The position numbers were made by a program, and so were the translations under genes. From the IMG/VR virus record IMGVR_UViG_3300032272_000030, positions 1-42,147 of that record: a stretch of 42,147 nucleotides of DNA; one strand, 5' to 3'. The notes beneath the pieces were generated by a model. The model made no database searches, was not told where the DNA came from, and saw nothing but the letters and a program-made list of their open reading frames with translations. This DNA comes from a virus. Its lineage: Duplodnaviria > Caudoviricetes. Shown piece after piece: positions 9,603-42,147 of this stretch. Positions within the stretch are counted from its first letter, which is position 1, and the number at the start of each line of letters is the position of its first letter.

Positions 9603-10145
<543 letters not shown>

Positions 10146-16949: not shown

Positions 16950-18795
16950 AGGAACGCCCGACAGCGAGGGGCGTGAGGTACACGAAGTCCTCCAAAACAC
17001 GGTGAAGGATGTCATCCTGAACCAAAACAAGCCCCGAAGGCAGTACCTCGCTGCGCTACGGAGCATGTACCTTGACCTGCCGGATGATGCGATGTACGCG
17101 GCGCTCGATATAGAGCGCCAGGAGCGCTCGCCGTACCATCTGATACAGGGCGCGGTGGACAGCACACACGCCCAGATCACCGCGCAGCGGCCCCGGCCTT
17201 TCGTGGTCACCGTGGGAGGTAACGGTCCGCTGCAGCGGCGTGCCAAGCTCCTACAGCGGTGGATTGATGGCGAATACGAGCGTCTCAAGGTCCATCAGTT
17301 GATGAACGAGGCGTGCAAAGACGCGCTGTTGTTCGGCACGGGGTTGCTCAAGGTGGGCACTTCGGATGGCCGGAACACGCTCGAAAGGATCTGGGCTGGA
17401 GACCTCTGGACCGATCCGCGAGAGGAGCGGTTCAACGCTGTCCGCACGCTGTATCAGGTCCACGCGATCGACACCGATGTGTTGAAGGCGCTGTACCCCG
17501 ACAAACACGCCGAGATCGGAAAGATCAAGAAAACAGCGCCGATCGATGATGTGCTGTTTCCGGACCTCGAGGTCAAAGGGTACAGCTCCCCGGGGCTCGT
17601 GACCGTGATCGAGGCTTGGCGGCTGCCGGCATCTGAGGCGCAGCCGGGGCGGCATGTTACGTGGTGCGATGGCGGCATCCTGCGGGATGTGCCGTGGAAG
17701 CGGGGGTTCCCTTTCGCGCGCTATCGCTGGACCGATGTCCCGATGAGGTGGTGGGGGCAGGGGATGGTCGAGCGCGGTGTGGGGATCCAACAAGACCTCA
17801 ACGAGACCTGCGGGATCGTTCGAGACTCGTTCAGCGACTTCGTTCCGAAGATCGTCGCATCCAAGGCTTCGGGGATCGACGAGGAGCAGCTCACCGACGA
17901 AGGAGGGGGCATCCTCTGGGTCAACGGCTCGGTCTCCGAAGCGCTGCAGGTGTTCTCTCCGGTGATCAATCCTGCGGTCATGCAACGAGAGCACACGTTG
18001 GCCGCACGCGCGTATCAGGTACTCGGGGTGTCGCAACTCCAAGCAGGCGCCGTGAAGCCCGAGGGCATCGAGAGCGGCAAGGGGATGCAGGTCTACAACG
18101 ACAGCACCTCCAGCCGCTTCAACCCCCAAGCCCAAGGGTACGAAGACCTCTCGATGGACTGCGCGCGCATGCTCCTCGAGAACGGCGACGAGATCGCCGC
18201 TACCAACTCCGAAGCCGCACAGCGGGTTTTTGGAGGCAAGCACTCACTCGAGCTGGTGGAGTATCGCCAGGCGCAGATGAAAGACGACGACATCTACGCA
18301 CTGCGGGTGTACCCGGTGTCCGGACTGTCCAACTCGATCAGCGCACGAATGGACGAGATCATGCGACTGCAGCAGATCAAGCCTGACATCGACCCCGAGC
18401 AGGTGGATGCGCTGATCGATATTCCGGACGTCGAGCAATACCGCGACCTGAAAAGCGCAGGGCACGACATCGTGAATCGCGCAATCGATGCCTGCCTCGA
18501 TGGCGAGGACATCGCCGCGTCTACCTACTGGCCGCGCGACTACGCCGTGGTGCGGATCGCCCAGTCGATCCAGATGGCCGAGTACCACAACGAGAGCCCG
18601 GAGGGGATCCAAAAACTCAGAGCTCTGCACGCAATGGTGCTGGCGATGGGAGCCCCTCCGCAGCCGTTAGAGGGTTTGCCCGGGGGACCGATGGATCCCG
18701 GGGGACCGATGGATCCCGGCATGCCGCCGGGTGACCCGATGATAGATCCCGGCATGCCGCCGGCAACCGAGCAGCTACCCGAGCCGACTCCATGA
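16900..18795 (+). CDS. portal protein
   Basis: 631 aa; ITAQRPRP and DALLFGTGLLKVG motifs typical of podovirus portals; Pro/Met-rich tail; precedes scaffold and MCP. Confidence 0.85.
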   Translation: MGQETDPKQWQWWNVGRGTPDSEGREVHEVLQNTVKDVILNQNKPRRQYLAALRSMYLDLPDDAMYAALDIERQERSPYHLIQGAVDSTHAQITAQRPRPFVVTVGGNGPLQRRAKLLQRWIDGEYERLKVHQLMNEACKDALLFGTGLLKVGTSDGRNTLERIWAGDLWTDPREERFNAVRTLYQVHAIDTDVLKALYPDKHAEIGKIKKTAPIDDVLFPDLEVKGYSSPGLVTVIEAWRLPASEAQPGRHVTWCDGGILRDVPWKRGFPFARYRWTDVPMRWWGQGMVERGVGIQQDLNETCGIVRDSFSDFVPKIVASKASGIDEEQLTDEGGGILWVNGSVSEALQVFSPVINPAVMQREHTLAARAYQVLGVSQLQAGAVKPEGIESGKGMQVYNDSTSSRFNPQAQGYEDLSMDCARMLLENGDEIAATNSEAAQRVFGGKHSLELVEYRQAQMKDDDIYALRVYPVSGLSNSISARMDEIMRLQQIKPDIDPEQVDALIDIPDVEQYRDLKSAGHDIVNRAIDACLDGEDIAASTYWPRDYAVVRIAQSIQMAEYHNESPEGIQKLRALHAMVLAMGAPPQPLEGLPGGPMDPGGPMDPGMPPGDPMIDPGMPPATEQLPEPTP

Positions 18796-19772
18796 GCTTC
18801 ACAGGACACAACCCCCTCGCCACGGCGCACGTACCCACGGCGCCCGCGGCTCCTGATACCCCCGCCACCGATCCGATCGCCGACCGCCGCACAGCTGCGC
18901 TCGATATCGAAGCGCGTCAGCACGCGGAGCGAGTGGCGCCCGAACCCCCAACGGGCGGCTCCGTAGAACCCCCACCCGCAGAACCGCCCGCGGACCCGAA
19001 CGCACTACCCACCCTTGATGAGCTGCCCGCGCTGATCCAGAAGCGTCACGAGGAGAGGCTTGCCAACGAGCAAGCCGAGCAAGACCGGCGCGAGCTCGAA
19101 ATGTGGAGAGCGCAGAGGGGCGCTACCGTTCCAGCACCTCCAGAGCCCGCCGACAGCGCCGCAGTTGCGCAGGCGTATTTCGATGCGCTACCCCCCGGCC
19201 AGAAGCGGGAGTACCTTCGGGATCTCGCCACGAAAGTCACCGCAACGCCCGCGGTGCAAGCGCTGACGCCGCAACTGCAGGCGCTCGAGGAGCAGGTCAA
19301 GGGCGTTCAGAACGTTCTCACAACCCAGCAACAGGCCGATCAAGCCGCGCGCGACGCGAAGCTGGAGGCCGAGTTTCAGACCTTCACAGGCAACGAGGAC
19401 GCTTATCCCGCCCTCGCGACACTCCCACCTGCAGAACGGCTGCGTTTGGGGTATGGTGTCATGAAGCAGTACCGAGCAGCGGGTGTCGAGATCACAGATG
19501 CGCAAATCGCGGCTCACCTCAACGAAGTAGAGCAAGAGAAGATAGACAGGATCATCGCCCGGCACACCGGGGGTGCTCCACAACAAGGCGCCGCACAGGC
19601 GTCGGCTCCGACAACCCCTGCATTCGGCAGGACCCAAGCACCGGACTCCCCGGCTACGCTAACGAACGCACACGCCGCAGCGGCACCCCTACGCGCTCCC
19701 TCCACACCTGAGGAGCGCCGCGAGGCAGCCAGACGCATCGAAGCGTCGCAACGCGCAAAACGACGTAGCTAG
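18792..19772 (+). CDS. capsid scaffolding protein
   Basis: Pro/Ala-rich and coiled-coil; lies between portal and MCP; C-terminal TLTN...STPEERREAARRI helix. Confidence 0.75.
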   Translation: MSFTGHNPLATAHVPTAPAAPDTPATDPIADRRTAALDIEARQHAERVAPEPPTGGSVEPPPAEPPADPNALPTLDELPALIQKRHEERLANEQAEQDRRELEMWRAQRGATVPAPPEPADSAAVAQAYFDALPPGQKREYLRDLATKVTATPAVQALTPQLQALEEQVKGVQNVLTTQQQADQAARDAKLEAEFQTFTGNEDAYPALATLPPAERLRLGYGVMKQYRAAGVEITDAQIAAHLNEVEQEKIDRIIARHTGGAPQQGAAQASAPTTPAFGRTQAPDSPATLTNAHAAAAPLRAPSTPEERREAARRIEASQRAKRRS

Positions 19773-19786: not shown

Positions 19787-21037
19787 ATGACCAGTACAAT
19801 CGCTGACGCGACCGAAATCGCAAAAACCCTGTATCACGGTGTTGTTCCAGAGATCGGTTTCACCGATACGCCCTTTTGGGGGATGTTGCCGAAGAATGAA
19901 AACTTCTTCGGGCTGAACAAGGCGTTCTCAAGCCGCTACACCAAAACCCCGGGCGCCTCCAAGACCTACGCCCGCAGCCGCACCCGAGCAGGGGCGTCGG
20001 CGTTTGGTCGGTGGACCGTCACACGCACCGAGGATTTCGTCACGATGCAAATCGAGGCGCAGATGTACGAGGCGTTGGGCAACGAAGAAGGCGCCCAGAC
20101 CAACTACGTCGAAGAGGAGTCGACGTCGGCGTTTGACCACGCGGTGCAGCGGATCGAGCGGAACCTTTTCCGCAACGCGGGCGGCGCGGTCGCGCGCATC
20201 AGCGACGACGGGGACACCGCTGTTCTCACGGTCACCGATCCCGCCGATCTGGTGGGCTTGGATGTAGGGCAGTATGTCACCACATCCAACACAGACGGCA
20301 CCTCGGGGTCGGATGATGGGTTTCCGCAGGAGATCACAGGGATCGATCGCGTGGCCGGAACCCTCACCACGGACGCCGCCTCGTGGGACGTAGATGGCGG
20401 GTTCAGCGACAATGACTACCTCTTCGTAGACGGTGACTTTGGGCTCGCTTTGTCAGGGCTCGATGCGTGGATCCCCCCGCAGAATCCGACGTCGGCGCTG
20501 TTCTACGGCCAGGATCGGAGCATCGATGTCCAGCGGCTCGGGGGCATCCGCTACACCGCACAGGCCGGCGAACCTGATGGGTCGATCGAGCGCGCGCTCG
20601 TCAACGCGGGCGTGCTGGCGCACAACCTGGGTGGGCGAACGTCGCACATCTTCATGAACACCCTGGACTACGGTGTGTTCCTGAACGACCTAGGCAACCG
20701 GGCGCGCGTGCACATCACCCCGGGCCAGGGGATCGACGGCAAGAAGCTCGAAGTTTCGTACAGTGGGATCAAGGTCCAGCTTGCGAGTGGTACCGCTGTG
20801 GTCTACCCATCGCGACACTGCCAGCGCTACACCGCGTGGCTCCTCGACATGAAGGATCTGCAGTGGTGCGGTCTGGGCAAGACCCCACGGTTCTTCGATC
20901 TCGACGGAGGTAAGTGGTTCCGCATGTCTGCCGACGATGTTCACGGCCTGGAGGCGTACCTGTACTGGTACGGCCAGTTCGTCGTGAAATCGCCCGGTTG
21001 CCACGTCCGGGTTGACCTGACCGAGCTCTTTGAGTAG
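19787..21037 (+). CDS. major capsid protein (HK97 fold inferred)
   Basis: 416 aa following the scaffold; ERNLFRNAGG, LSGLDAWIP and LFYGQDRS motifs; GGAG SD; followed by a GC-rich imperfect hairpin. Confidence 0.85.
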   Translation: MTSTIADATEIAKTLYHGVVPEIGFTDTPFWGMLPKNENFFGLNKAFSSRYTKTPGASKTYARSRTRAGASAFGRWTVTRTEDFVTMQIEAQMYEALGNEEGAQTNYVEEESTSAFDHAVQRIERNLFRNAGGAVARISDDGDTAVLTVTDPADLVGLDVGQYVTTSNTDGTSGSDDGFPQEITGIDRVAGTLTTDAASWDVDGGFSDNDYLFVDGDFGLALSGLDAWIPPQNPTSALFYGQDRSIDVQRLGGIRYTAQAGEPDGSIERALVNAGVLAHNLGGRTSHIFMNTLDYGVFLNDLGNRARVHITPGQGIDGKKLEVSYSGIKVQLASGTAVVYPSRHCQRYTAWLLDMKDLQWCGLGKTPRFFDLDGGKWFRMSADDVHGLEAYLYWYGQFVVKSPGCHVRVDLTELFE

Positions 21038-21108
21038 CGCTCCGGCGGTCGGATCGGGGAGTACGCTACAAGGCGCCCCGCCGACCGTCACCTCTCGTCC
21101 GTAGACCC

Positions 21109-22311: not shown

Positions 22312-22312
22312 C

Positions 22313-26708: not shown

Positions 26709-26711
26709 GCC

Positions 26712-26882
26712 ATGGGGCGGTTCAGTACACAGCGGGACAAGGACAACAACCGCCTGGCGCGTGAGGTCGAGCGAGATCTGCAGAAGATCGAACGACGTCT
26801 CGCGGCCGTCGAGACCGCACTTGAAAGTTTGACCGCAACCGTCGCGGCTCTGGATGCTCGCCTCGTCGTGCTCGAGCCCTAG
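26712..26882 (+). CDS. 56-aa coiled-coil protein
   Basis: Manual translation MGRFSTQRDKDNNRLAREVERDLQKIERRLAAVETALESLTATVAALDARLVVLEP shows clear heptads. Confidence 0.7.
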   Translation: MGRFSTQRDKDNNRLAREVERDLQKIERRLAAVETALESLTATVAALDARLVVLEP

Positions 26883-26891
26883 TGCTAGAAT
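26883..26891 (+). promoter_or_regulatory. extended -10 promoter TGcTAGAAT, 6 nt before ATG 26898 (leaderless)
   Basis: Near-consensus TGnTATAAT; no SD before the ATG. Confidence 0.5.
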
Positions 26892-26897
26892 CGCCCG

Positions 26898-29800
26898 ATG
26901 GTCGTCACCGCCACGTACGCAGGAGTAGATCAGCCGGACGTCGCGAGCCTGGAAAGCGGGGGTGAGTTCTACCGCTGCTTTGTGTACCGCAACGTCGCCC
27001 GGAACACGATCGACGCCACCATCAAGATCGAGAACCCTGGCGGGGTTTCTGTGATCGTGTGGTCGGGGGTTGTCCGCGATGTAGAGGCGGACGGCGATGC
27101 TCGGCACGTCGGGGATATGCCCAAGGTGCTAGGGCTCGACAACGGGATCTTCGTGGCCCATTGGATCGAGTCCGACAGCTCGGGCGGCGCATCGGCAATC
27201 CACAGAGCGACCATCGACGTAGGCGCGCTGGCGCTGACCTGGACTTACCAAAGCAGCCAGGCCATCCACAACTCTACTTGGGCGATGTACGACCACGCGG
27301 TTGTTCGGGATGGGACCACCAGCGAGTTTGTGGTGGCCTGGATCGACAACATCGCCGATATCGGCGGGGTCGATTACGGGGACTACGCGCTCGCCCGGTA
27401 CGAAGCGGACTACGCTTGGACGGATACGGTGTGGAGTGTGACGTCCGGGGGGAACACGGTGGTCAACCGGCTCCTCTCCCTGGTCGCAGACGACGATGCC
27501 GATGCCGTGGTGGGGGTCGCGTTCCAGGCGGTGGGAAACGCCTTGTTGTTGACCCAGCACGACAGTGCGGATGGTCTGAACTTCACTTTCGCCACCGTCT
27601 CGACAGGGCTGGCGGCCAGTCAGTTTGCGCAGGTTGGGCTTGTGCAGTTTCCTGGCCTCTCGGCCTGTGCTTTGGTGGCCGAGTACGCCCTACAGGCCGG
27701 GCAGACCGCGGGCGGCCGGGCTGCAAAAGAGCGGGGGATCTTCTACCGAGAATGTGCTCTCGGATCCGGCGCGGCTGTCTCCACCTCGGTGCAGTGGACA
27801 CCCGGGCTGCATATGGTCTCGCGCCCCTGGACACGGGCGAACGGTTACGACGAGCACGAGGTCTACTGCTTGGTCAGCGCCAAGTCGGTGAGCATCGCCA
27901 ATCGTGCGTGGGATCAGACCTTCGGGTACGTGGTACGACTCAATCGCCGTGACTGGAGCGCGGTGCAGGGAGCGGGGACGATCCGTGCGATTGCCTGCAG
28001 CATCCTCGGGAACGGATCTTTCGACGGGCGCGCGTCGGGAAGTAGTCCGAGCAGCGACCAAGAGCTCGTCAACTCCGTGGCCGACACCCGGGTTGGCCAT
28101 ATCTCGAGCGTCAGCTACGCCCCGAGTTTCACCCAAGGGCCCAACGTGAAGTCTGTAGTGCTGGCCGCGCTGCACTTCGAGCGCACCATCGCTAGCCAGG
28201 ATAGTGACGTCGAGGACGGTGAGCGCGACCGGGCGCAAGCGGCTGTCAAAGGGGTGCGGCACTTCCACGAGGAGCCTTGGACGCGGCGGCGCGACACAGC
28301 GGACCCCACGCGCGAACCTGCACTACCGGCCGCACTGAACTTTCGCGGGTACTCGCCCTATGCGATCGGGCGCAACCTTGAAGTAGCCTCGGGGCTCCTG
28401 ATCGCCGGAGGTGTTCTCTCCCAGTACGACGGGCGCCAGCTCGTAGAGGTTGGGTTCACGAACGCGCCCGAGATCGAGGTGGTCCAGACGGGCACCGGCG
28501 GCGGTGGTACAGGGATACACCAACAGGGGGTGTACTGGGTCGTCGGCACCTACTCGTGGACGGACCTCCAGGGGGTGGTGCACCGATCGGCCCCGAGCAC
28601 GCCGCAGTCGGTGACCGTAGGACCGCTGCACGCGGACGCGTTCACCTACGCCGCGCGCACTGTACCGCTCACCCTCAAAGACGACAGGCACCACTACCCA
28701 GATGCGCCGCGCATCTTGCTCGAGTTTTGGCGAACCGCGCTCTTGACCGGCTCGCCCGAGGGTGAGGCTAACGGGTCGCTCCTCTTTCGGCGTGTGTTCA
28801 GCGGCAACGTTGCGGGGATGGGGCTCGGGGACACCCCCGTCAATGATGCGTCGATCCCCGCGGTGACAGGCATCACCGATATCCTGCCCAGTGATGACCT
28901 GCAGTACAACGACCTGCTTCCGTGGCAGCTGAACACCGAGACGCTGCAGTACAACCTAGCGACACCTACACCAAGCGTCAGCGCAAGAGCGCCCGCGAAA
29001 TGGAAAAACCGACTTTTCTCGGTGCCGATGGATGACCCGAACATCATCCAATACAGCGATGAGTTTCTTCCGTTAGGTCTGCAGAACGCTGCGGCTGAGC
29101 ACTTCGACACCAACAAATACCGTTTCGATTCGCGCGGGTTCATCGTCGCAATGCAAGCGATGGACAACGACCTGATCATCTTCACGCGAGATGGCATCTA
29201 CGCGCTGACCGGCGAGGGGAACGACGCAACGGGAGCGAACGCGACGCTCGACCTGCAGGTGATCGCTACCGACACCGGGTGTGTAGAGGAGGGCTCCGTC
29301 GTCTACACCCCTGCGGGGATCTTGTTCCAGTCCGCCAAAGGGTTCTACCTGCTCAATCGCGAGCAACAGCTGGATCATGCGAGTGCCGGCGCGGCGCTGT
29401 CCGAGTTGGTCCGCACGCTGGGCAACGTCCGCGAGGGTACGCTCCTCGAGGATCGTCATGTTGTGCGGTACGTCTGCAACCGCCAGCCCGCGGGTTCGGT
29501 CGTCTCCCCTACCATCCTCGACTACAACTACGAGCTCAAGATCTGGGCGATCCACCCTCTTGCATCGTTCGCCTCAGGGACCGCGGCCGTGCTGCAGAGC
29601 GGTGTGGCCTGGCGCGGGCGAATGGGCCAGACTTGTCACGTGGTGCTCGCAGAGAACGGCCTGGCCGTCGAGAGGGGGGACGATGATACCAACTACTCGG
29701 ACGAAAACTTCTCGTCGGTGGAGATCCCTATCCCGCTGGACGCTCAGACCGAATGGATCCACCTCGCGGGTGCCTCGGGTCTGGTGCGCATCCGTTCGAT

Positions 29801-30092
29801 CGGGATTCAAACGGAGCGTGTAGACCCGGGCGAGGTGAGCGTCGACGTCTACCACGACATCAACGGGGAGTACGACGAAACGCTCCCTACCGACACCTTC
29901 ACGTGGAGTAGCCCCGCGCCCGCCTACATGCGGTTACGACCATCGCTGCCCAAGTGTAGTGCTATCATGTTGAGGATCTACGAGAGCGGCGTCGTCCCCG
30001 CTACCGAAAACCTGCGAATTGTCTCGATCACCCTGGAGATCGGGCAGAAAACACGCACCCGACGCGTACCTGTCGGCCAAGTAGGAGTCTGA
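26898..30092 (+). CDS. tail nozzle/tubular B-like beta-propeller protein (1064 aa)
   Basis: WKNRLF, IIQYSD, DLIIFTRDGIYALTG, DTGCVEEGSVV.TP.GILFQSAKGFYLL and a C-terminal QTEWIHL are typical nozzle blade motifs; precedes the ejection proteins. Confidence 0.75.
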   Translation: MVVTATYAGVDQPDVASLESGGEFYRCFVYRNVARNTIDATIKIENPGGVSVIVWSGVVRDVEADGDARHVGDMPKVLGLDNGIFVAHWIESDSSGGASAIHRATIDVGALALTWTYQSSQAIHNSTWAMYDHAVVRDGTTSEFVVAWIDNIADIGGVDYGDYALARYEADYAWTDTVWSVTSGGNTVVNRLLSLVADDDADAVVGVAFQAVGNALLLTQHDSADGLNFTFATVSTGLAASQFAQVGLVQFPGLSACALVAEYALQAGQTAGGRAAKERGIFYRECALGSGAAVSTSVQWTPGLHMVSRPWTRANGYDEHEVYCLVSAKSVSIANRAWDQTFGYVVRLNRRDWSAVQGAGTIRAIACSILGNGSFDGRASGSSPSSDQELVNSVADTRVGHISSVSYAPSFTQGPNVKSVVLAALHFERTIASQDSDVEDGERDRAQAAVKGVRHFHEEPWTRRRDTADPTREPALPAALNFRGYSPYAIGRNLEVASGLLIAGGVLSQYDGRQLVEVGFTNAPEIEVVQTGTGGGGTGIHQQGVYWVVGTYSWTDLQGVVHRSAPSTPQSVTVGPLHADAFTYAARTVPLTLKDDRHHYPDAPRILLEFWRTALLTGSPEGEANGSLLFRRVFSGNVAGMGLGDTPVNDASIPAVTGITDILPSDDLQYNDLLPWQLNTETLQYNLATPTPSVSARAPAKWKNRLFSVPMDDPNIIQYSDEFLPLGLQNAAAEHFDTNKYRFDSRGFIVAMQAMDNDLIIFTRDGIYALTGEGNDATGANATLDLQVIATDTGCVEEGSVVYTPAGILFQSAKGFYLLNREQQLDHASAGAALSELVRTLGNVREGTLLEDRHVVRYVCNRQPAGSVVSPTILDYNYELKIWAIHPLASFASGTAAVLQSGVAWRGRMGQTCHVVLAENGLAVERGDDDTNYSDENFSSVEIPIPLDAQTEWIHLAGASGLVRIRSIGIQTERVDPGEVSVDVYHDINGEYDETLPTDTFTWSSPAPAYMRLRPSLPKCSAIMLRIYESGVVPATENLRIVSITLEIGQKTRTRRVPVGQVGV

Positions 30093-30095
30093 ACC

Positions 30096-31499
30096 ATGCC
30101 CCTCCCCCTCGTCATTCCCGCAGTAGCTGGCGCCGTTCGTGGCTCAAAGGGCCTTTGGGGCAAGAAGGGGCGCGAGCGTCGGCGCAAGCGGCGTGAGGGC
30201 GATCAGGATACGGTCGCCGCGCCCGAGCTCGGTCGGGATTTCGCCGCGGAGCAGGCGCGGATGGGAGGCCTCTCGGGCACCTCGGGCGCCGCGTACGGTA
30301 CGGACCGCGCCCAGCAGGCGGCGGCTCTCGATGCGTACCGCCGCGCCGCGAGCGGCAATGCGCCCTCACAGGCTCAGCTGATGCTGCAGCAGCAGACCGC
30401 GGCCAACGTGGGAAACTTCCAGTCCGCTATCGCGGGCGGGCGCGGCGGAAACATGGCCGCGCAAGGTCGGCAGATGGCTGCTATGTCGGGCGCGGCGCAG
30501 ATGGGCGGGCAGCAGCAGATCGCGCAGCTTCGGGCTCAGGAGATGGAGGCCGCACGCGCAGGCCAGGCCACCTTGGCCTCTACCATGGCTGGGCAAAGCT
30601 CAGACCGGCAGATGCAGGCCGAGCAGATGCGGATGGGAGGTGCTGGAATGCAGCTCGATGCCGACCTTTCGCAGCGGGGTCTGAACATCGGACAGCGCGA
30701 CAGCCAGGCGGCACGCAATCAGCAGTGGGTCATGGCGGGCTCCAAAGGGGTGGACTCGGCAGTTGCCGCGGGCAAGACCATGAGCGATGAGCGGGTGAAG
30801 ACCGACATCAGCCAGGGCGAGTCGGCGAGCGAGGCCGAGGCCAGCAGACTCTCGGCAGCGCCCCAGCCCCCGCAGGCCCCTGTCGAGGCGCCGCTCGAGA
30901 GGGCGCTTCAAGGGCTGGTCGGCTTGTTCCATTCGGCACAAGCACCCGGCGGGCCACCCCAACAGCCCGCACCTCCGCCTCAACGGTACAGCCCTCCGCT
31001 GCGTCCGGGTAGCGAGCGTGTAGGCAGCCCGCCTATAGAGGGACCGTTTCCCGCAGCACAGCAAATCGGCCACGGTGCGTTCTCTGACGAGCGGGTGAAG
31101 ACTGACGTTGGCCGCGGTGACGTCGCGGCCAGTGAGGCGATGGCCGAGCTGAAACCGTCGACCTACCAGTACGCCAGTCCGGAGTACGGGCCGGGTGGGC
31201 AGAAGATCGGGATCATGGCTCAAGATCTGGAGAAGACCCCCGCAGGGAGCCAGCTCGTGCAGAACACACCCGCAGGGAAGCAGGTGGACGTCGCAGGGGG
31301 TATGAGCCTGGCGCTTGCCTCCGGGGCGGATCAGGAGAAGCGGATTCGTGAGCTGGAGGCGGCGCTTGCTCAAGGTGGGGGCGGCCTGGCCAGTACCGGC
31401 CAGCAGTATTGGCAGCAGGCCAGGGGGTTGCCGAACTTACCGAACGGCGAGGTTGATCCTCGACGGCGAAATATGACGCTGGGAGGGGATTACGCGTAA
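30096..31499 (+). CDS. ejection/pilot-like protein with a C-terminal Peptidase S74 autocleaving chaperone domain
   Basis: Gln/Ala/Gly-rich helical body; SDERVKTD twice, then YQY...GIMAQDLE...KRIRELE. Confidence 0.75.
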   Translation: MPLPLVIPAVAGAVRGSKGLWGKKGRERRRKRREGDQDTVAAPELGRDFAAEQARMGGLSGTSGAAYGTDRAQQAAALDAYRRAASGNAPSQAQLMLQQQTAANVGNFQSAIAGGRGGNMAAQGRQMAAMSGAAQMGGQQQIAQLRAQEMEAARAGQATLASTMAGQSSDRQMQAEQMRMGGAGMQLDADLSQRGLNIGQRDSQAARNQQWVMAGSKGVDSAVAAGKTMSDERVKTDISQGESASEAEASRLSAAPQPPQAPVEAPLERALQGLVGLFHSAQAPGGPPQQPAPPPQRYSPPLRPGSERVGSPPIEGPFPAAQQIGHGAFSDERVKTDVGRGDVAASEAMAELKPSTYQYASPEYGPGGQKIGIMAQDLEKTPAGSQLVQNTPAGKQVDVAGGMSLALASGADQEKRIRELEAALAQGGGGLASTGQQYWQQARGLPNLPNGEVDPRRRNMTLGGDYA

Positions 31500-33634
31500 T
31501 GGCACTTTTCAACGTTGGTCCGAACAGGTACCCCGATCTGGAGCCTCCTGCCCCTTTGCCCACGGCATCTGCGCCCGCGCCCGCGCCCGATCCGAACTAC
31601 GATCCCACATCTTTCGGGGACGTGTGGGGTGGGTTTGCGGACGACTTCACCGCAGGGGCGCCCGACCGGTACGTGGCTCCTGTTGAGCCCGAGCCCCCTA
31701 TGGATGTGCTCGAGCAAGCGGATGCCATCCTTGCGAGCCAAGAGGCCGCGATGGCCGGGCCTGGCGGGGTGGCTGAGGCTCCGTTGGCGGGACCCAACGC
31801 CTACGGCATCAATGCCGATCAGATGAGCCGAGACTCCGACGAGTACGCCAAGCTGCGCGCAGAGCTGCTGCAAACCACGTCCGTCACGCGCGACAACCTC
31901 AAGTACCCTTTCGCACAGCGAGATCAACTCGAACTGCAGGGAGGTGCCCCGGCCGCACCGTGGGACGAGTCGATGATCGACACCACGGAGTTTGTTCCGT
32001 ACCGAGCGGACCTGACCGAGCAGGCGGCGATCGAGGCGTACGAACCCCCTGCGCGAGAAGAAGGCGAAACGCTCGAGGACTACCAGCTGCGGCGGACGGC
32101 GGATTTCCAGCTGCACAAAGAGAATGCGCGGTGGGAGGTGATTGCAAACGAGGCAGCACTCACCACCAACATGGCGCATATCGACCGCCAGCGCGCCGCG
32201 TACGAGGCCGAGGTGGAGGCGCGCGCGAACACTGTCGACATCGAGGCTTTCGGGGAGCAGGGTGCGCCCGGTGAGCGCAAGGCGGGATTCATCGCGGAGA
32301 AGGCTCTCATGGCTGGCACCACCGAACAGGCCGAGGCGATCGTCCAGGGTGCGACGGAGGCGGCGCGGATCCACGAGCGCGGCGAGAAGGCGGGCGCTGA
32401 GCAGGTGGAGATCGCTCGCGAGCACCAGCGGGATCAGGACGAGGCGACCACCAAGATCATGGCGGCGCGCAACCGGCTGCAAGAGCAGCGCGAGGCGATG
32501 CCCGCACCTGACGCCAACAGGTTCTTCAACAATCAGACCGGCGGGCAGAAGATCCTTACCCTCATCGGCGCCATTGCAGGGGGGCTGGGCGGATCGCACT
32601 ACACGCTGGATGCCGTCAACGCGATGGCGCAGCGGGACTGGGACGAGCAGGTGGCCAGCCTCAACAAAGTTGAGTCGGATATCCATCTGCTCGACGACGC
32701 GGCCGCGTCTTCGCGAGCGATGTTCTCGGAGCTCCGGCGGTCGGGGTTGGACGTCACGTCCCAGCAGAAGGAATACAAGGCTCAGCTGCTCGACTCGGCC
32801 GCGGCCGCGCTCGAGCGCGAGGTGGCCCGGAGCAACGTAGAGATCGTTCGCGCGCAGCTCACCAAGGACGCTCTCGCGGTACGGGAGGCTGCGGATGACC
32901 TGCGTAATCAGGTGGAGTACACCGCAGCAACCGCTCCTCGCACGATCACCAAGCGCGGTATGGCCGTCTCCGGGGCCGCGCGTAAGCTCAAGATGGAGGA
33001 GCTTGGGCGGCTCGGGAAAGACCAGTCCGGGGCGAAAACTCGCGCACCAGGACTTGCGGTGAAGGATTCTGATTTCGACCTCCGTGTGCGCGAAGAAGCG
33101 CGCAAGACCCAAGAGGGTGCGCACTTGAAGGGTGAGGAGCGGAAGGAGTTTACCGAGCGGCAGGCCGAGCGCGTGATCGGCAACGTTCACAAGCACATCG
33201 CGGTTGTCGACTCTCTAGACAAGTTCTTGCAGAAACACGAGGGTTCCGTCCCCGCGGGGCGTACCTTCGGGACGTACATCTGGACAGAAGAAGGTCGCGA
33301 CGTACGGGACGATCTTCGGCGCATCGCTATCGATATCCTCTATGCCAACTCTGGTGCGGTCATTGGAGAAGACGAGAAGGCCGACCAGGACGCGCTCAAC
33401 AAGGCGGGTTGGGGTACGGAGGAGCTCATGGGCAACCTGATGGCCGAGCGTGAGCGCGCGGCGCGGAAGGTGAACGGGGCGCTCACAGCCGCTAGCGACG
33501 AGGCGATGGAGCACGTGAAGCACAACATCATTCGCACTTTCGGCAAGGATGCCTGGGCACCCTACGCGGTGACAGGGCGCTCGACGAAGGACATCGCCAA
33601 AGAGCTCGGTGCTAAGATCCTGCGCGATGGGTAA
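31499..33634 (+). CDS. internal virion (ejection) protein (711 aa)
   Basis: Long helical/coiled-coil protein with one hydrophobic patch (ILTLIGAIAGGLGG); position after the nozzle. Confidence 0.65.
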   Translation: MALFNVGPNRYPDLEPPAPLPTASAPAPAPDPNYDPTSFGDVWGGFADDFTAGAPDRYVAPVEPEPPMDVLEQADAILASQEAAMAGPGGVAEAPLAGPNAYGINADQMSRDSDEYAKLRAELLQTTSVTRDNLKYPFAQRDQLELQGGAPAAPWDESMIDTTEFVPYRADLTEQAAIEAYEPPAREEGETLEDYQLRRTADFQLHKENARWEVIANEAALTTNMAHIDRQRAAYEAEVEARANTVDIEAFGEQGAPGERKAGFIAEKALMAGTTEQAEAIVQGATEAARIHERGEKAGAEQVEIAREHQRDQDEATTKIMAARNRLQEQREAMPAPDANRFFNNQTGGQKILTLIGAIAGGLGGSHYTLDAVNAMAQRDWDEQVASLNKVESDIHLLDDAAASSRAMFSELRRSGLDVTSQQKEYKAQLLDSAAAALEREVARSNVEIVRAQLTKDALAVREAADDLRNQVEYTAATAPRTITKRGMAVSGAARKLKMEELGRLGKDQSGAKTRAPGLAVKDSDFDLRVREEARKTQEGAHLKGEERKEFTERQAERVIGNVHKHIAVVDSLDKFLQKHEGSVPAGRTFGTYIWTEEGRDVRDDLRRIAIDILYANSGAVIGEDEKADQDALNKAGWGTEELMGNLMAERERAARKVNGALTAASDEAMEHVKHNIIRTFGKDAWAPYAVTGRSTKDIAKELGAKILRDG

Positions 33635-36296
33635 AGTCAAAGTCACGCGCGGCACCGCCGTACTCGAGATCGACGAGTCCAAGGTCGAGGCTGCGCGTGC
33701 GCAGGGCTTTCAGCTCGTCCCAGACGAGGTTGCGAAGGCGAAGGTGCTGCGTGAAAGTGCGTCCTCGATCGGGGGCACGATCCGCGGCGGTGTGAGCGCC
33801 ATCGCGTCCGGCATGACGCTCGGGGTGAGCGACTGGGCGGCCGAGAAACTCGGCGCCGATCCTGAGGTCATGAAAGCTGAGCGCCAGGGTATGGCGCCCT
33901 TGGAGGTGGCCGGCGCGGTGCTCCCGGCTCTCGTGACAGGCGGCAGTTCAGCGGCAGCTACCGGAGCTGTGCGGGGAGGTGCTCTCGCCAGAGGTGCTGC
34001 GACCGCTCTCAAATACTCCCCTGCAGGGCTTGTAGCGCAAGGTGGTGCAAAGATCGCCGCAGGTCGTGGTCTCGCCGGCGCGGCCGCTGGCGCGGCGTTC
34101 GAGGGGGGCGTTGAAGGTGCTGTGCGGACCTTGGGCGAGGAGGCCTTAGGAGGTCCTGAGGTCACGGCATCCCGCGTTTTCGGCAACGCGGTCAAGGGTG
34201 CAGGGCTCGGCGCGGTTCTGGGTGTCGGTATGCACGGAGCGCTCGCCGGCGGGGCGAAGGCCGCCCGAGGGCTGGCGACCGTAGGGGAGGGTGCCTCAGC
34301 GACCGCGGGCAAGCTGGCCCGCGGGGGTGGAGCGAAGGACAAGGCGATCAAGTTGTGGGCGAAGGCTACCGGCGCTGCGCCGGAGGACTTTCGCACGGTG
34401 GTCGAGGATATGCTCCCTACCAAGGAGGGACGGCGGATCTTGCTCGAGGGGCCGGAGGCTGCGAAAAAGTCGCGCGCCGCGCTCGCCGAGCGCCTCAAGA
34501 CGCCCGTCGACAAGATGAACGATGTATGGGAGGGCATCCGCAAACAGACCGGCGCGGACCATCGCATCGGGAACGCGGAGCGCAAGCTCACCCAAGCAGA
34601 GACCGATGCAGCTCGCGGGAACGCGCTGGGGTTCGTGCAGCGCCAGTTGGCCGACATTGAAAAGCGGCTCGCGAACCCGCACCTCTCCCCTGACGAGATC
34701 ACCGATCTCACCAAGTTTCAACGGTACCACGAGGCCAGTGTGGCGAAGCTCGAGGACGCCGCGGTATCCGGAGGGGAAGCCTTCCGTGCGGTAGACCGGC
34801 TGCGGCAGGACATCGCTGCGGTGAAGAAGGGGCGGTACGCAGAGCACAGCAGGAACGCTCGTCCCGAAACGCTCGACGCCGCCCAGACAGCCCAGCACTT
34901 CACCAAGGCCGCGCGCGACCACACGACCGATGCAGCGCTCTACGGGGACGCAGCGCGCGAGCACGGTGAGAACCTGCAGGCATGGGTGACGGGGATCGAC
35001 GCCGCTGCGAAGCTCAAGAAAAAGTCCCCCGCGCTGGGAAAGCTCTTTGAGAAGGGCGCTACCGATGCCGATATCACTCCGCTTCTAACGCTTGCGCGCG
35101 GGCGGATGGGTGCGACCAAAGAGGCGGGGTTCGAGGCGGTGTTCGAGGCACGGGCGAAGGCGATCGAGGTGCTTGAGCGCAATCACGACCTGACGCCCGA
35201 GCTCCGCGCACAGATCGCAGAGTTCAAGCTGGCGCGGAAAGCCAAAGACAAGGCGATCAAAGACAACGCCTCACTGATCGAGAAGACCGAAGCGTTCTAT
35301 CGCATCCGCCAGGCCGGCGAGAGCGGACACTCACCCTCCAACGTCGGCGTGCAAGCGGCATCTACAGTGGGGACGGCTGTGGGCTTCGGGATCGGCGGGG
35401 TGCCGGGCGCCATCGTCGGCGGCGCTGTCGGGGCGCTTACCAAACCGTTCTCGTCCCTTCGGGCAGTGGCCACGATGATGAACGTCGTGGAGTCGATGAA
35501 GCTCCGTGAACGCGGGATCATCAGCGGCGCAGGGCAACTAATGGACGGGTTGCCGTCCACCTCCACGGTAGGGCGCGCTGCGGCGAAAGTGCCCTCTGCG
35601 GCGCGCCGTGGCGTTACCACCTACGAGTCCACCCGCCGTCGCAGAGAGGCCGCGCTCGCGGTCCGTGACAAGGTGAACGACTACACCGTGGAGCCGCTCA
35701 AGTTGATGGAGCACCTCGACGATGAGGTTCTGCTGGCCGAGGCGCCGAACACGTACCGGGCACGGTACACCACAGCAGCGCGGGCGGTGGCGTACCTCAA
35801 GTCGGTGGAGCCCCAGACGTACAAGCCGCTTTTCTCGGGCGGGACGGAGCTCGTCGATCCTGTCCAAGTGGAGCGCTACGAGATGGCGGTCACCGCGATC
35901 ACCGACCCGTACGGGACGTTGGAGCGGTTGGTCACCGGCCTGTTGGCTCCTGAGCACCTGAACGCGCTGGATGCAGTCCACCCCGAGCTGATGGCTACCG
36001 TTCGCGATGGCGTGCTCGAGGAGGTAGGAGAGCGCGTGGGTGCCGGCAAGGCCATTGACTGGCGCGCTCGTACGCGGCTGGGGCAGATGCTTCGCATGCC
36101 CCTCGACGACTCACAGCGGCCGGGGATCTACCTGCAGATCCAAGAGGCGATCAGCGGGAACACACAGGCCAACCCCGGAATGGAGCCACCCGGCGCCCCG
36201 AAGCGGGGGCGCAAGGCGATCCAGACCGAGGATATGAAATCCGAAAACCTGATGACAGACAGCGAACGCCGTGCGTCAGGGATCAACAGGGCTTAG
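33627..36296 (+). CDS. large internal virion (ejection) protein with Gly-zipper membrane segments
   Basis: 889 aa from ATG 33627; GMTLGVSD, AGAAAGAAFEGG and GVPGAIVGGAVG segments; last late gene. Confidence 0.7.
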   Translation: MGKVKVTRGTAVLEIDESKVEAARAQGFQLVPDEVAKAKVLRESASSIGGTIRGGVSAIASGMTLGVSDWAAEKLGADPEVMKAERQGMAPLEVAGAVLPALVTGGSSAAATGAVRGGALARGAATALKYSPAGLVAQGGAKIAAGRGLAGAAAGAAFEGGVEGAVRTLGEEALGGPEVTASRVFGNAVKGAGLGAVLGVGMHGALAGGAKAARGLATVGEGASATAGKLARGGGAKDKAIKLWAKATGAAPEDFRTVVEDMLPTKEGRRILLEGPEAAKKSRAALAERLKTPVDKMNDVWEGIRKQTGADHRIGNAERKLTQAETDAARGNALGFVQRQLADIEKRLANPHLSPDEITDLTKFQRYHEASVAKLEDAAVSGGEAFRAVDRLRQDIAAVKKGRYAEHSRNARPETLDAAQTAQHFTKAARDHTTDAALYGDAAREHGENLQAWVTGIDAAAKLKKKSPALGKLFEKGATDADITPLLTLARGRMGATKEAGFEAVFEARAKAIEVLERNHDLTPELRAQIAEFKLARKAKDKAIKDNASLIEKTEAFYRIRQAGESGHSPSNVGVQAASTVGTAVGFGIGGVPGAIVGGAVGALTKPFSSLRAVATMMNVVESMKLRERGIISGAGQLMDGLPSTSTVGRAAAKVPSAARRGVTTYESTRRRREAALAVRDKVNDYTVEPLKLMEHLDDEVLLAEAPNTYRARYTTAARAVAYLKSVEPQTYKPLFSGGTELVDPVQVERYEMAVTAITDPYGTLERLVTGLLAPEHLNALDAVHPELMATVRDGVLEEVGERVGAGKAIDWRARTRLGQMLRMPLDDSQRPGIYLQIQEAISGNTQANPGMEPPGAPKRGRKAIQTEDMKSENLMTDSERRASGINRA

Positions 36297-36313
36297 CCGC
36301 GGCTCGGCACACC

Positions 36314-36562
36314 TCATCGTTGACTCGCCGCACAGCTGCACGGGGTGCCGTCCGGTGCAGGGTACGGCTGCAGGCACTTCGGGCAATGGCTGTACCCGAC
36401 CTCGCGCCGCGCTCGCTCCACCATCCGAGCCTTGCGACGACGGTACTCGGCGAGAACCGTCCGCATCTTCTTCGGTGTACGGGTGCGGTGTTTGGCCCGT
36501 GCGGCGCGGGCCGCTGCGACGCGAAGCTCCCAGGCGGGGGTTGGGTCTCGGGGGCTGTTCAT
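36314..36562 (-). CDS. Arg-rich 82-aa protein with a C-terminal CxxC...CxC
   Basis: ATGA overlap; HCPKC...PCSC. Confidence 0.55.
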   Translation of the reverse strand: MNSPRDPTPAWELRVAAARAARAKHRTRTPKKMRTVLAEYRRRKARMVERARREVGYSHCPKCLQPYPAPDGTPCSCAASQR

Positions 36563-36807
36563 CGGAGGATATCCCTTGCGTGCTCGGCGATTCCATCCGC
36601 GCTGAACCTGTCCAGGTACCTCGGTCTCGGGACCGAGGCCAGCCCGAGTTGTCCACGCAGCGTGGCTGCAAACCGGGTGCACCGTTCCCTCTCATCGTGC
36701 GTGAGGTAGCGGGCTTCGTTGTCCTCGGTGCGTGCTTCGCAAACCGTCCGGTCAAACACCTCGGTCATGTAGAGGTACACAACCCAGCGATCATCGCCGA
36801 CGATCAT
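36559..36807 (-). CDS. hypothetical protein (82 aa)
   Basis: ATGA overlaps at both ends (MIVGDDRWVVYLY...). Confidence 0.55.
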   Translation of the reverse strand: MIVGDDRWVVYLYMTEVFDRTVCEARTEDNEARYLTHDERERCTRFAATLRGQLGLASVPRPRYLDRFSADGIAEHARDILR

Positions 36808-37016
36808 CGGAGGAGCCCCCGCCGCGCGCGGCGAACAGCGCCGAGCAGTGAACGAGCCTTGCCGTGGGGGTAGCTCCTGCCGTCGTCCGGCCAGGGGAAG
36901 CGGGCGAACCTCCACCAGCCGTCCCTATCGATCCAGTACCGATGAGTACCGTCTTGGACCTGCGCGACCGGGACGCCGCTGGCTGTGGTGGTGTTGGTGT
37001 GGATGAGTCGTGTCAC
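36804..37016 (-). CDS. hypothetical protein (about 70 aa)
   Basis: Probable GTG start at 37016; Trp/Arg-rich; stop overlaps the next ATG. Confidence 0.45.
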   Translation of the reverse strand: MTRLIHTNTTTASGVPVAQVQDGTHRYWIDRDGWWRFARFPWPDDGRSYPHGKARSLLGAVRRARRGLLR

Positions 37017-37029
37017 GGCACTTCGCTGT

Positions 37030-37305
37030 TCAAGCCCGCGGGCTGGTCTCGGAGAAGTTTTCATTCTTTGACAACATCCCCCAAAGAGGGTTCTCGTCGT
37101 AGACGAGATCATCGATCCCGCCCGCGTACCAGCGGATGCCGAACACCGATCCCTTGAAGTACGGCACGAACATCCACCCTTGTGGGTAGAGGCGCTTGAG
37201 CATCGCCGTCATATCCTCGAGGCGGTACCGAACGTGCGGATAGAGCCGTCGCTTGCGCCGCTCTCTGGCTCGGCGCAGTCGCTTGCGTGAGGTTTTCGTG
37301 CTCAT
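37030..37305 (-). CDS. 91-aa protein: Arg-rich N-terminus plus a segment homologous to the MCP N-terminus
   Basis: PLWGMLSKNENF versus MCP PFWGMLPKNENF; 35/40 nt identity to 19871-19910; ATGA overlap with VRR-NUC. Confidence 0.7.
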   Translation of the reverse strand: MSTKTSRKRLRRARERRKRRLYPHVRYRLEDMTAMLKRLYPQGWMFVPYFKGSVFGIRWYAGGIDDLVYDENPLWGMLSKNENFSETSPRA

Positions 37306-37703
37306 AGCGCGCTCTCCTCAGGGAAGCCCCAAGCCACGAGCTGCGCGATGGCCTCGGCCGCACCGTAGCAAACGGCCGCCTCCCAGCCCGCATCTCGCAG
37401 CTGCTCGAGGCAGTACAGCTGTGCAGGTGTGGCACCTGCGGGGGGCTTGGCTGCGTCGGCGGCCCGCTTCATCTCGATGGCGTACCCGCGCGGCCCGTCC
37501 GGCGTGGCAAACGGTTCCGGGATGGTGGAGAAGATCAGCAGATCGGGGATGCCCTTGCGCGTGCCCATCGCTTTGAGAATGCTCCCCTCCCTCGAACCTC
37601 GGTGGCCCTCGTTGGGGACGTGACAGAAGAAGATCTTGCGCCGCTTGAGCCACTGTGCCACGGCGATCGTCTCCTGAGTTTCGGTTAGTTGCTTCGCGGT
37701 CAC
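37302..37703 (-). CDS. VRR-NUC domain nuclease (putative junction resolvase)
   Basis: FFCHVPNEG, GIPDLLIF, YAIEMKR and TPAQ...L...GW motifs. Confidence 0.88.
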   Translation of the reverse strand: MTAKQLTETQETIAVAQWLKRRKIFFCHVPNEGHRGSREGSILKAMGTRKGIPDLLIFSTIPEPFATPDGPRGYAIEMKRAADAAKPPAGATPAQLYCLEQLRDAGWEAAVCYGAAEAIAQLVAWGFPEESAL

Positions 37704-38293
37704 GCGATCACCCGCTCCTCGTACGTGACCACCACACCGGGGATGGTCTCCCCCTCGTCGAGACCCTCCTCGATCGCGGCCATATCGGGTACCAGGTAGC
37801 GGGGAGGTATCAGCGCGGTGTTCTGAATGGCCACGAGGCGGTACCTCCGGGTCTTCGCCTGCACGACGGGCACCGCAAGAGCCTCAACTACCGCAGCTTT
37901 GGCGGCCGCAGGCTCCTCGATCTTCGCAGCCTCCTCGAGCTGCTTTCGCTGCGCCTCCTTTTGCTCCCGCAAATCCTTCTGGATGCGGGCCTTGAGTTCA
38001 TCCTTGAGCGCCTCGTACTTGCGAATCGCCGGATTGAAGAACAGGTCTACCCTCCGGCCCGCCTCCAGCGAGGGTGCCTTGAGGTCCTTGCGGGTCTTGT
38101 CCAGGCCGCGGATCTTCGCCTGCACCACCTTGAGCACCGCAACGGCCTCGTCCGAGGTCTCGATGAGCGCCACCAGCTCCTCAAACTCGTTGGCCGCGGC
38201 GAGGTTCGTAGGGGCGTTGGCCGCGGCGAGGTTGTCTGCAGAGCCGATCAGCTGCTCGATAGGTACGGGGGCGGGGTTTGGTGCGTCGACCAT
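37700..38293 (-). CDS. coiled-coil Gp157/Gam-like protein
   Basis: Long coiled coil followed by LIPPRYLVPDMAAI...IPGV at the C-terminus. Confidence 0.55.
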   Translation of the reverse strand: MVDAPNPAPVPIEQLIGSADNLAAANAPTNLAAANEFEELVALIETSDEAVAVLKVVQAKIRGLDKTRKDLKAPSLEAGRRVDLFFNPAIRKYEALKDELKARIQKDLREQKEAQRKQLEEAAKIEEPAAAKAAVVEALAVPVVQAKTRRYRLVAIQNTALIPPRYLVPDMAAIEEGLDEGETIPGVVVTYEERVIA

Positions 38294-38979
38294 CAGCCCG
38301 CCTCTCCGTTCGCGTCACTCTCGGGGAACACGGTGCCGTAGTTCGGTGCTGGTGTGACGTTGCGTCTGGGACCGAAGCTCCGAGCCCTGCGCAAGATCGC
38401 GATTGAGCGCTGGATATCCGGCATCGCGCGGTGGGGAGACCCTTTGTGCACAGGCCAACCGGCGCCCGGGAACAGTTCGATCGCGGTGCGCGCGTCGAAG
38501 TTTCGGTGCGAGAGGCGCTCGGCGGCGAGCGGCATCCAGTGTTCCAGAAACCCCCGGTCGAAGTGCACGGATTGGCCGAGAAGGGTCGGTTTGACCTCGC
38601 CGAAATTGCGGCCGATCACGAGGCACAGCTCCCCCTCGGTCTCGTCGAGCAGGAATCGCGCGCCGTACAGATGGGGGGTGCTCAGCCGCAAACCCCCGTT
38701 CCAGGGCTCAAGGAGCCCGCTACCCAGGTGCATCTTGCGGACGTACTCGTCGCATCTCTCAAGCTGCAGCGGGCTCGCGTAAACCTGGTGGTGGTACGCG
38801 TAGATCTCCTTGAGATCTTCGGTGAGGACGACGACGGCGATCTCAAGGATCCGATCCTTGCGGGGGTCGAGCCCGGTCGTCTCGATATCGATGGCGATGT
38901 AGTGTGCAGGATCGAGCCCGGCTTTCGGCGCGTCGTGGATCGTGAGGTCGGTCTTGGTCTTGGTCTTGGTTCGTGTCAT
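38293..38979 (-). CDS. orn: oligoribonuclease-like DEDDh 3'-5' exonuclease
   Basis: IDIETTGLD...ILEIAVV, MHLGSGLL, GQSVHFDRGFL, HRNFD and HRAMPDI match Orn family motifs; ATGA overlap at 38979. Confidence 0.85.
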   Translation of the reverse strand: MTRTKTKTKTDLTIHDAPKAGLDPAHYIAIDIETTGLDPRKDRILEIAVVVLTEDLKEIYAYHHQVYASPLQLERCDEYVRKMHLGSGLLEPWNGGLRLSTPHLYGARFLLDETEGELCLVIGRNFGEVKPTLLGQSVHFDRGFLEHWMPLAAERLSHRNFDARTAIELFPGAGWPVHKGSPHRAMPDIQRSIAILRRARSFGPRRNVTPAPNYGTVFPESDANGEAG

Positions 38980-41853: not shown

Positions 41854-42147
41854 CTAGGGGCGTGCTGGGATCCTCATCTTCGGCTCCCGACAGCCGGTGT
41901 TCTCGACCAGGACCGCCGCACCAGCGCACTCGTACGTCTTGATGCGCCCCTCGCCAAAGTTGAAGTTGCACGAGACGTAACCGTCGTGGTCCGTGTCCTT
42001 GGTGTTGCAGACGACGGTCGGGTCACCGAGGTGCATCTCCGCGGACCACTTCTTGGCGGACTTTTCTGCGGCCTCTTTGTGGGCGCCGGTGTAGTTGAAG
42101 CAGCCCGTGACCGTAGCGGCCACGACGACACAGATGAGGGCAAGGCT
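41854..42147 (-). CDS. 3' part of the junction-spanning Cys-rich lipoprotein (about 106 aa in total)
   Basis: Mature part CFNYTG...CNTKDTDHDGYVSC...C...GC, with a DxDxDG Ca-binding-like loop. Confidence 0.8.
   Translation of the reverse strand, partial: SLALICVVVAATVTGCFNYTGAHKEAAEKSAKKWSAEMHLGDPTVVCNTKDTDHDGYVSCNFNFGEGRIKTYECAGAAVLVENTGCREPKMRIPARP
42021..42147. repeat. 127-bp terminal direct repeat, copy 2
   Basis: Identical to 1-127. Confidence 0.93.

Follow-up and report, generated by a model that had tools for sequence, protein, structure and literature searches.

A stand-alone capsid N-arm gene in a phage replication operon: likely foreign origin of the arm and probable exchange with the live capsid gene

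Why would a tailed phage encode one end of its capsid protein a second time, as a small open reading frame (ORF) among its replication genes, and where did that second copy come from? The question is raised by a viral genome (Duplodnaviria; Caudoviricetes) held as IMG/VR record IMGVR_UViG_3300032272_000030. The whole stretch analysed, 42,147 nt, is called the window here. Its 127-nt termini are identical (1-127 and 42021-42147), which makes the window a closed circle of 42,020 bp, with 64% G+C. Packaging, head and tail genes occupy the plus strand from about 10.9 to 36.3 kb, and the minus strand carries a replication module with a family A polymerase, an exonuclease, a Gp157/Gam-like protein and a VRR-NUC nuclease. 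Terminase, portal, scaffold, major capsid protein (MCP), tail and polymerase genes are all found, so that the virion genes are present, unlike in a satellite.

Several other features of the window were noted. About 12 tandem 20-nt units at 7602-7851 adjoin a hairpin (7853-7890) and possibly form a replication origin. A GC-rich hairpin motif of about 50 nt occurs in three dispersed copies (8253-8305, 8756-8809 and 9461-9524) among small minus-strand genes; these copies may be regulatory or processing sites. A tRNA-like gene on the minus strand (2204-2299) has a long variable arm, an anticodon left unassigned by ARAGORN and an Rfam tRNA score of 38.7 bits. An ORF on the same strand (9603-10145) contains a long run of Asn-Asp dipeptides at 9741-9861.

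The mini-ORF and its genomic setting

The small ORF, referred to as the mini-ORF, its parts and its upstream neighbour are as follows.

37302..37703, minus strand: VRR-NUC nuclease gene (PF08774 above cut-off), with its stop overlapping the mini-ORF start
37314..37319, minus strand: GAGGAG hexamer resembling a ribosome-binding site (RBS), 8 nt before the ATG and within the 3' end of the VRR-NUC gene (read from the sequence)
37030..37305, minus strand: mini-ORF, 91 aa, chimeric, with a copy of the capsid N-arm; its own frame has the best coding log-odds of the six
37219..37305, minus strand: Arg-rich leader, residues 1-29, with a predicted helix at 4-21 (scaffold-profile score and AlphaFold)
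37180..37218, minus strand: block A, residues 30-42, an N-arm helix of distant-family type with an LKRLYPQ motif (profile score)
37123..37179, minus strand: in-frame insert, residues 43-61, a predicted beta-hairpin absent from family MCPs (Tyr-to-Pro spacing and AlphaFold)
37090..37122, minus strand: block B, residues 62-72, an arm segment of distant-family type with a DLVYDEN motif (profile score, residues 63-72 scored)
37050..37089, minus strand: 40-nt tract common to the MCP gene, residues 73-85, the part predicted to dock on the MCP body (nucleotide alignment and complex model)
37027..37038, minus strand: 12-nt micro-match to the MCP gene just past the tract, containing the mini-ORF stop codon (random-stretch comparison)

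The mini-ORF thus has five parts: leader (1-29), block A (30-42), insert (43-61), block B (62-72), and the tract with a short tail (73-91). An initial annotation had described a 91-aa ORF with an Arg-rich N-terminus at 37305-37030 on the minus strand, adjoined to the VRR-NUC gene for translational coupling, and both points agree with the sequence: the ATG of the mini-ORF overlaps the TGA of VRR-NUC (37302-37305, ATGA), with GAGGAG 8 nt upstream. Coding log-odds per 100 nt are 4.3 in the frame of the mini-ORF vs -10 to -30 in the other frames. Residues 29-72 reach 12.3, similar to the core genes of the genome (10-14); the leader scores -3.6 in its own frame, and the tract is also slightly below zero. 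The reading frame has apparently been kept, given the RBS-like hexamer, the ATGA overlap, the in-frame leader and insert, and the core-gene-like score of residues 29-72. The mini-ORF is therefore likely to be translated, as judged from these signals, by coupling to VRR-NUC in the replication operon.

An AlphaFold model of the mini-ORF, built with an alignment of 37 arms, has low confidence (pTM 0.34); it places helices at residues 4-21, 29-39 and 73-77 and a hairpin at 44-61. The second and third of these helices correspond to MCP helices 3-16 and 29-33. Searches for a source of the leader in the window or in the collected family loci gave only low-complexity matches, among the matches listed. 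The leader was also considered as a scaffold tip and rejected, scoring -0.3 bits on a profile of 91 scaffold C-terminal ends vs 22.7 for the phage's own scaffold. Internal R-[LW]-Y repeats at residues 19, 37 and 57 were likewise set aside as not significant (shuffle p 0.175).

A chimeric assembly had been named as one way in which such a locus could mislead. Logan contigs of one sequencing run (X1) cover 25845-38900 and 19000-25236 of the window with 0 differences at a depth of 80-86, and in this independent assembly a single 18-kb contig spans the mini-ORF with flat depth; X1 may be the window's source, so this is a check of the assembly only. A run from another study (X2) contains an identical 151-nt piece, 37230-37380, across the VRR-NUC/mini-ORF junction. 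No chimeric join was found, and the two copies of the tract differ at 5 of 40 sites. In favour of an artefact, the whole region occurs in only one run, possibly the source itself. Joints between the two tract copies and variant contigs were absent from the contigs, which drop rare forms. An assembly artefact is largely refuted by these data, and we consider it very improbable as the explanation of the mini-ORF.

A capsid arm of foreign type and its exchange with the capsid gene

The structural genes to which the mini-ORF is compared are the following.

18792..19772, plus strand: putative scaffold gene in the portal-MCP interval (C-terminus 22.7 bits on the family profile), a candidate partner of the N-arm helix
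19787..21037, plus strand: MCP gene, HK97 fold, SU10-like (AlphaFold and Foldseek; homologs with PF17236)
19871..19910, plus strand: MCP copy of the tract, codons 29-41; codons 35, 37 and 38 derived, of distant-family type (alignments, tree and profile scores)

The MCP showed no direct match to Pfam (PF17236) or PHROGs. Its AlphaFold model (pLDDT 88.7) has the SU10 capsid, 7z48, as best Foldseek match (E 1e-10), and PF17236 is present in 14 of its 78 homologs. A search of 1,062 six-frame segments of the window with the MCP family profile gave the mini-ORF as the sole second match (E 4e-5), and the N-arm pattern within it scores 18.4 bits on a family profile built without the phage's own MCP. 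Residues 30-42 and 62-85 align with the first approximately 42 residues of family MCPs, and an alignment with 37 family N-termini indicates that blocks A and B and the tract together make up a complete N-arm. The likeness stops at the arm boundary, the first long strand of the MCP body beginning at residue 44; only MCP profile positions 6-45 are covered, and the E-loop, P-domain and A-domain are missing. The insert sets the mini-ORF apart from the family: the spacing from Tyr to Pro is 33 residues vs 13-15 in all 166 family arms, none of which has an insert of about 19 aa.

The claim of a 35/40-nt match with five transitions and a core of 10/12 identical residues was fully reproduced by alignment. 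Positions 37089-37050 and 19871-19910 lie on opposite strands and are read in the same frame; the five differences (T/C, C/T, T/C, A/G and C/T) include three that alter a residue. The repeat has an E value of 1.3e-7 by self-blastn and no other two genomic 40-mers separated by more than 2 kb match at 32/40 or better. Within it, 9 of 10 identical residues use the same codon. Upstream of it, identity falls to 30 of 69 aligned nt, and none of the five identical residues shares a codon, so the earlier observation of similarity at the protein level only is correct for this region. The 12-nt micro-match past the tract is possibly a decayed extension of it, although 135 of 12,032 random stretches score as well (p about 0.01) and the comparison is post hoc and weak. 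A diversity-generating retroelement was rejected as the cause of the tract differences, which are not confined to template adenines; no reverse transcriptase was found among the window proteins scanned.

Blocks A and B were scored on two profiles, a distant profile of 64 distant-family arms (from 140, reduced at 60% identity, with the own clade left out) and a near-clade profile of arms from which the own MCP was excluded. On the distant profile block B reaches 13.7 bits vs -1.9 for the own MCP, and on the near-clade profile 0.9 vs 25.7 bits. Block A behaves in the same direction, with 21.8 vs 14.0 bits on the distant profile and 9.2 vs 24.2 bits on the near-clade profile. The score of block A or block B was not equalled by any of about 8,800 peptides drawn from 18 window ORFs (0/8,864 for block B), and when the phage's own block B was mutated at the observed divergence, 13.7 bits were reached in 1 of 20,000 trials. 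The scores and mutation trials therefore show that blocks A and B did not arise by recent drift from this phage's MCP. They stem from a distant-type capsid gene, or have been retained since before the clade diverged. The best single matches are to proteins P0033, P0056 and P0027, each narrowly above the own MCP. The initial annotation saw in the mini-ORF the phage's own MCP N-terminus, re-encoded. That it is a copy of a capsid N-arm stands; origin from the own MCP is only partly right, blocks A and B being of distant type and the tract appearing to have been imported into the MCP. Capture from a related phage, which had been offered as one option, is the best-fitting origin in view of these blocks, and the arm is likely, on sequence grounds, a captured foreign one and not simply a copy of the own MCP.

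The direction of transfer of the tract was approached through the relatives of the MCP. In a tree of 20 proteins with the first 45 residues removed, the own MCP is sister to P0003 with support of 99/98. All seven closest MCPs (50-81% identical) have K, R or T at position 35, T at 37 and T or S at 38; the own MCP has P35, N37 and E38, and the mini-ORF has S, N and E at the same places. Since the sister protein and the closest MCPs differ there, P35, N37 and E38 are derived in the own MCP. A score of distant-like vs near-like character, calculated as own MCP minus P0003 along the protein, gives residues 29-40 the top rank for foreignness among 405 windows, and likewise among the 34 that do not overlap, with a fixed-window permutation p of 0.006. 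These comparisons suggest a recent exchange of the tract by gene conversion, with the mini-gene or its donor as the source and codons 35-38 of the live MCP gene as the probable recipient.

Not all observations fit a one-way transfer. Residues W31-G32 of the tract are own-clade-like, W occurring in 7 of 140 distant arms, so that transfer may also have run from the MCP gene to the mini-gene, and exchange in both directions is possible. The 12-nt match beyond the tract also speaks against a single direction, as does the fact that codons 35-38 are one of four patches of lineage-specific change in the MCP (17-19, 35-38, 307-310 and 328-333), on a branch about twice as long as that of the sister (0.16 vs 0.07). 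The MCP copy contains a perfect 8-bp palindrome with a 7-nt loop (19889-19911) that covers the derived codons, and palindrome-driven template switching is a possible alternative route to them.

Relatives of the mini-ORF were sought widely. No homolog was found among 5.8 billion proteins (50-160 aa) or among 1.84 billion representative proteins, the sole match in the latter (P0089) being a spurious one to a eukaryotic repeat protein. Searches of IMG/VR, INPHARED and GTDB gave no usable homolog; PHROGs, Pfam and NCBIfam gave no match; the ESM Atlas gave nothing usable with either the whole mini-ORF or residues 27-88; a BFVD fold search gave 0 matches at E 0.001; and the best E value of PDB sequences with the arm profile was 0.2. 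The expectation that short stand-alone proteins matching only MCP residues of about 5-45 could be found elsewhere was not borne out: in 5.8 billion proteins of 23-160 aa the arm profile gave nine matches besides the mini-ORF, all from a normal MCP start and all without leader or insert. P0083 (57 aa, on a 33.7-kb contig) was rejected as a homolog and is presumed to be an interrupted MCP. A degenerate motif scan of IMG/VR returned seven loci, none resembling the mini-gene; three are short, chance-like frames and four lie in frames of about 430 aa. The latter (L194, L195, L198 and L200) belong to another family, probably of capsid proteins, with the same PLWGMLPK motif about 73 residues into the frame.

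The 95 IMG/VR records that contain an MCP of the family, 19 of them at least 90% complete, were all without a stand-alone second arm; one of the scans behind this count covered 45 loci out of 50. Three records have two arm matches, explained by an identical copy at the other contig end in one and by genes split by inserts in two. On the sequences collected, the mini-gene is not a family-wide feature. Nearly all of the 95 records come from distant relatives; three are closer, and these are fragments of 8-16 kb. The own MCP as a single query had no match in IMG/VR or INPHARED; an alignment of the MCP clade found four IMG/VR loci, three metagenome loci (one of them the window's own record) and none in GTDB; and the DNA polymerase of the phage has no close relative in IMG/VR. 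The initial annotation had held that a lack of homologs in related phages together with a lack of expression would point to a one-off recombination scar. The searches did find the first of these, which has little force and is weak evidence because close relatives, as the polymerase illustrates, are barely sampled.

The 95 records also revealed that the MCP gene is interrupted within about its first 50 codons in four of them, at these places.

L012, about 785-1498: MCP-gene interruption
L085, about 1595-2273: MCP-gene interruption
L121, about 871-1392: MCP-gene interruption
L161, about 1341-1537: MCP-gene interruption

Three of the four inserts contain an HNH/endonuclease-VII-like ORF (labelled by eye from motifs) and have a group I intron-like look. 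The L012 and L085 inserts had no Rfam match at gathering score. In L085 the insertion site is equivalent in position to the tract's 3' end.

Possible roles of a free capsid arm

Docking of the mini-ORF on the MCP was predicted with ESMFold2, using as partner the MCP without its first 42 residues. Residues 69-85 were placed against MCP residues 117-128, 287-289, 311-325 and 340-366 with a score of 0.75 vs 0.00 for the best of three controls; at least 64% of contacts were common to the runs, and partner pLDDT was at least 49. The mark used is reached by 116 of 157 solved pairs and by 2 of 215 mismatched pairs. Confident placement is limited to residues 69-85, blocks A and B not being confidently placed. 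The model suggests that residues 69-85 could fit the arm groove of the MCP body, a score that mostly records resemblance to the arm-body packing seen in solved capsids, and that the part of the mini-ORF shared at the DNA level is the part that would dock. The N-arm helix of phage P22 is a scaffold-binding element that refolds as the capsid matures (PMC9965877, accessible part), so that by analogy block A could meet a scaffold.

We tentatively favour the reading that the mini-gene is a chimeric accessory gene with a foreign arm, translated into a product that acts as a free N-arm competitor or decoy. A distant-type capsid N-arm would have been captured by recombination during co-infection, later joined in frame to the Arg-rich leader and supplied with the hairpin insert, and MCP codons 35-38 would have been converted with either the mini-gene or its donor as template. 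Made in the replication operon through coupling to VRR-NUC, the free arm would compete for whatever binds the capsid N-arm. Taken singly, each kind of target is unlikely: a host protein recognizing consensus-type arms has slightly the better prospects, followed by the capsid or scaffold protein of this phage or of a co-infecting related one. Seen directly are the three N-arm blocks in a single open frame, the foreign type of blocks A and B, the near-identical tract and, inside it, the derived foreign-type residues P35, N37 and E38 of the own MCP. The reading also draws on the two-tier codon divergence, the signs of a retained frame, the end of the copy at the arm boundary and the complex model. 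Against a function of the free arm, there are only five changes between the tracts, so intact motifs alone need no selection; three of the five are non-synonymous, which gives no hint of purifying selection; an arm that is covalently attached should outcompete a free peptide; and the mini-ORF is an orphan in all collections searched, with no second arm in the 95 family records. A more ambitious version is unlikely: phages would keep stand-alone N-arms of foreign type as early mini-proteins against arm-binding host sensors or rival assembly, and the mini-gene would also be a DNA template that rewrites the live arm, decoy and capsid co-evolving.

Close behind the free-arm competitor comes a serious rival, a functionless recombination relic, in which a foreign capsid 5' end landed in frame in a dispensable gene after VRR-NUC and converted the MCP gene once. 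The non-synonymous tract changes and the lack of homologs and of second arms fit it, as do the ragged 3' end with a stop possibly made by an indel and the 5' end of family MCP genes as a hot spot for inserted DNA (4/95), which offers a source of breaks. A relic would have required that two junctions both fell in frame by chance, about 1 in 9, an objection with less force given that the open frame is why the locus was noticed; nor does it readily account for the coding signature and predicted hairpin fold of the insert or for a copy that stops at the arm boundary, and with close relatives unsampled the absence of homologs lends it little. Improbable is the idea of a donor cassette, DNA stored as an alternative arm sequence to vary the capsid gene, with the protein incidental. 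The foreign-type residues of the own MCP do fall precisely inside the shared tract, the lineage-specific patches 307-310 and 328-333 flank the predicted arm-binding surface (311-325), and the genome has an exonuclease of PD-(D/E)XK type and the Gp157/Gam-like protein. Yet a single conversion is the kind of by-product that any homology gives, the 1,062 six-frame segments include just one cassette, and among the contigs there are no variants or joints between copies. Slightly less probable still is a nucleic-acid switch, either a plus-strand antisense RNA to MCP codons 29-41 or an inversion of the 17-kb structural block that would give the MCP the N-terminus of the mini-gene. The tract copies are inverted and in frame, 35 Watson-Crick and three G-U pairs would form over the 40 positions, both copies can form an 8-bp hairpin on the plus strand of the window, and a simple scan of that strand from 35800 to the tract gave no terminator-like site. 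Such a switch leaves blocks A and B, conserved only as protein, unexplained; the antisense form would need transcription to run for about 750 nt against three ORFs, the proteins scanned include no site-specific recombinase, Rfam has no family at either copy, and the RNA fold of the mini-ORF tract is no better than shuffles (z -0.3 and 0.0).

Known systems and what the locus records

The mini-ORF shares arm sequence and predicted helices with the N-arm of SU10-like MCPs (PF17236, PDB 7z48); it differs in standing alone, with a leader and an insert of about 19 aa, in a replication operon on the opposite strand. In antigenic variation of the pilS/pilE type, silent donor cassettes serve gene conversion. 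As there, a partial second copy appears to have donated to an expressed gene, but the mini-ORF is a single copy and an open frame with translation signals, with no sign of repeated or programmed switching.

The working model for a decoy is DSAD1 of SPbeta-like phages, a small phage protein that occupies the DSR2 sensor site used by the tail tube protein (PMC11087589). DSAD1 is a competitor of the tail tube protein at a known sensor, whereas any sensor bound by the mini-ORF product would be hypothetical, and the accessible text of that source does not present DSAD1 as a fragment copied from its trigger. Satellites provide a second comparison: CpmB and Rcm are SaPI scaffold mimics that act on capsid assembly in trans (PMC12409344), and Ccm of SaPIbov5 is a capsid-protein homolog that acts on assembly (PMC8569155). 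As far as these accounts were accessible, all three are, like the mini-ORF, copies or mimics of assembly proteins. They are satellite genes directed at a helper phage, in contrast to the mini-ORF, which lies in a complete phage, carries the arm only and has a leader that is not scaffold-like. CapRel-SJ46, Lit/Gol and Avs7, Avs8 and Avs10 show the MCP as a sensed pattern, but the N-arm is not named as the sensed part in the accessible portions of the sources. Escape from CapRel-SJ46 maps to MCP residues 114-115 (PMC9712102), and Avs7, Avs8 and Avs10 bind the A-domain and not the arm (bioRxiv 10.64898/2026.01.04.697583), which argues against a sensor decoy. No capsid-fragment decoy is named in the accessible parts of a counter-defence review (PMC13728456) and a preprint (10.64898/2026.06.04.730250). 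No description of a phage-borne free capsid N-arm mini-gene was found in the full-text literature searched, mostly without subscription papers, and the phrase 'capsid mimic' was absent from the papers listed for it. The mini-ORF fails as a satellite redirector, a diversity-generating retroelement or a full MCP and would work, if at all, as a decoy of the DSAD1 type or as an assembly competitor.

Virion-protein decoys (DSAD1) and satellite assembly mimics (CpmB and Ccm) were known before; what this locus adds is an arm of foreign origin and a patch that was likely transferred into a live capsid gene. The evidence for the origin, a foreign arm and a recent exchange, is far stronger than that for any function. 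If the protein works, the capsid N-arm would be a contested surface, and its free copy may be a bait for an unknown host sensor or a block on the assembly of related phages. If it is a relic, an evolutionary snapshot is all that remains. Whatever the protein does, the locus likely records a capsid gene, of a kind usually thought hard to change, taking a foreign patch from a second copy.
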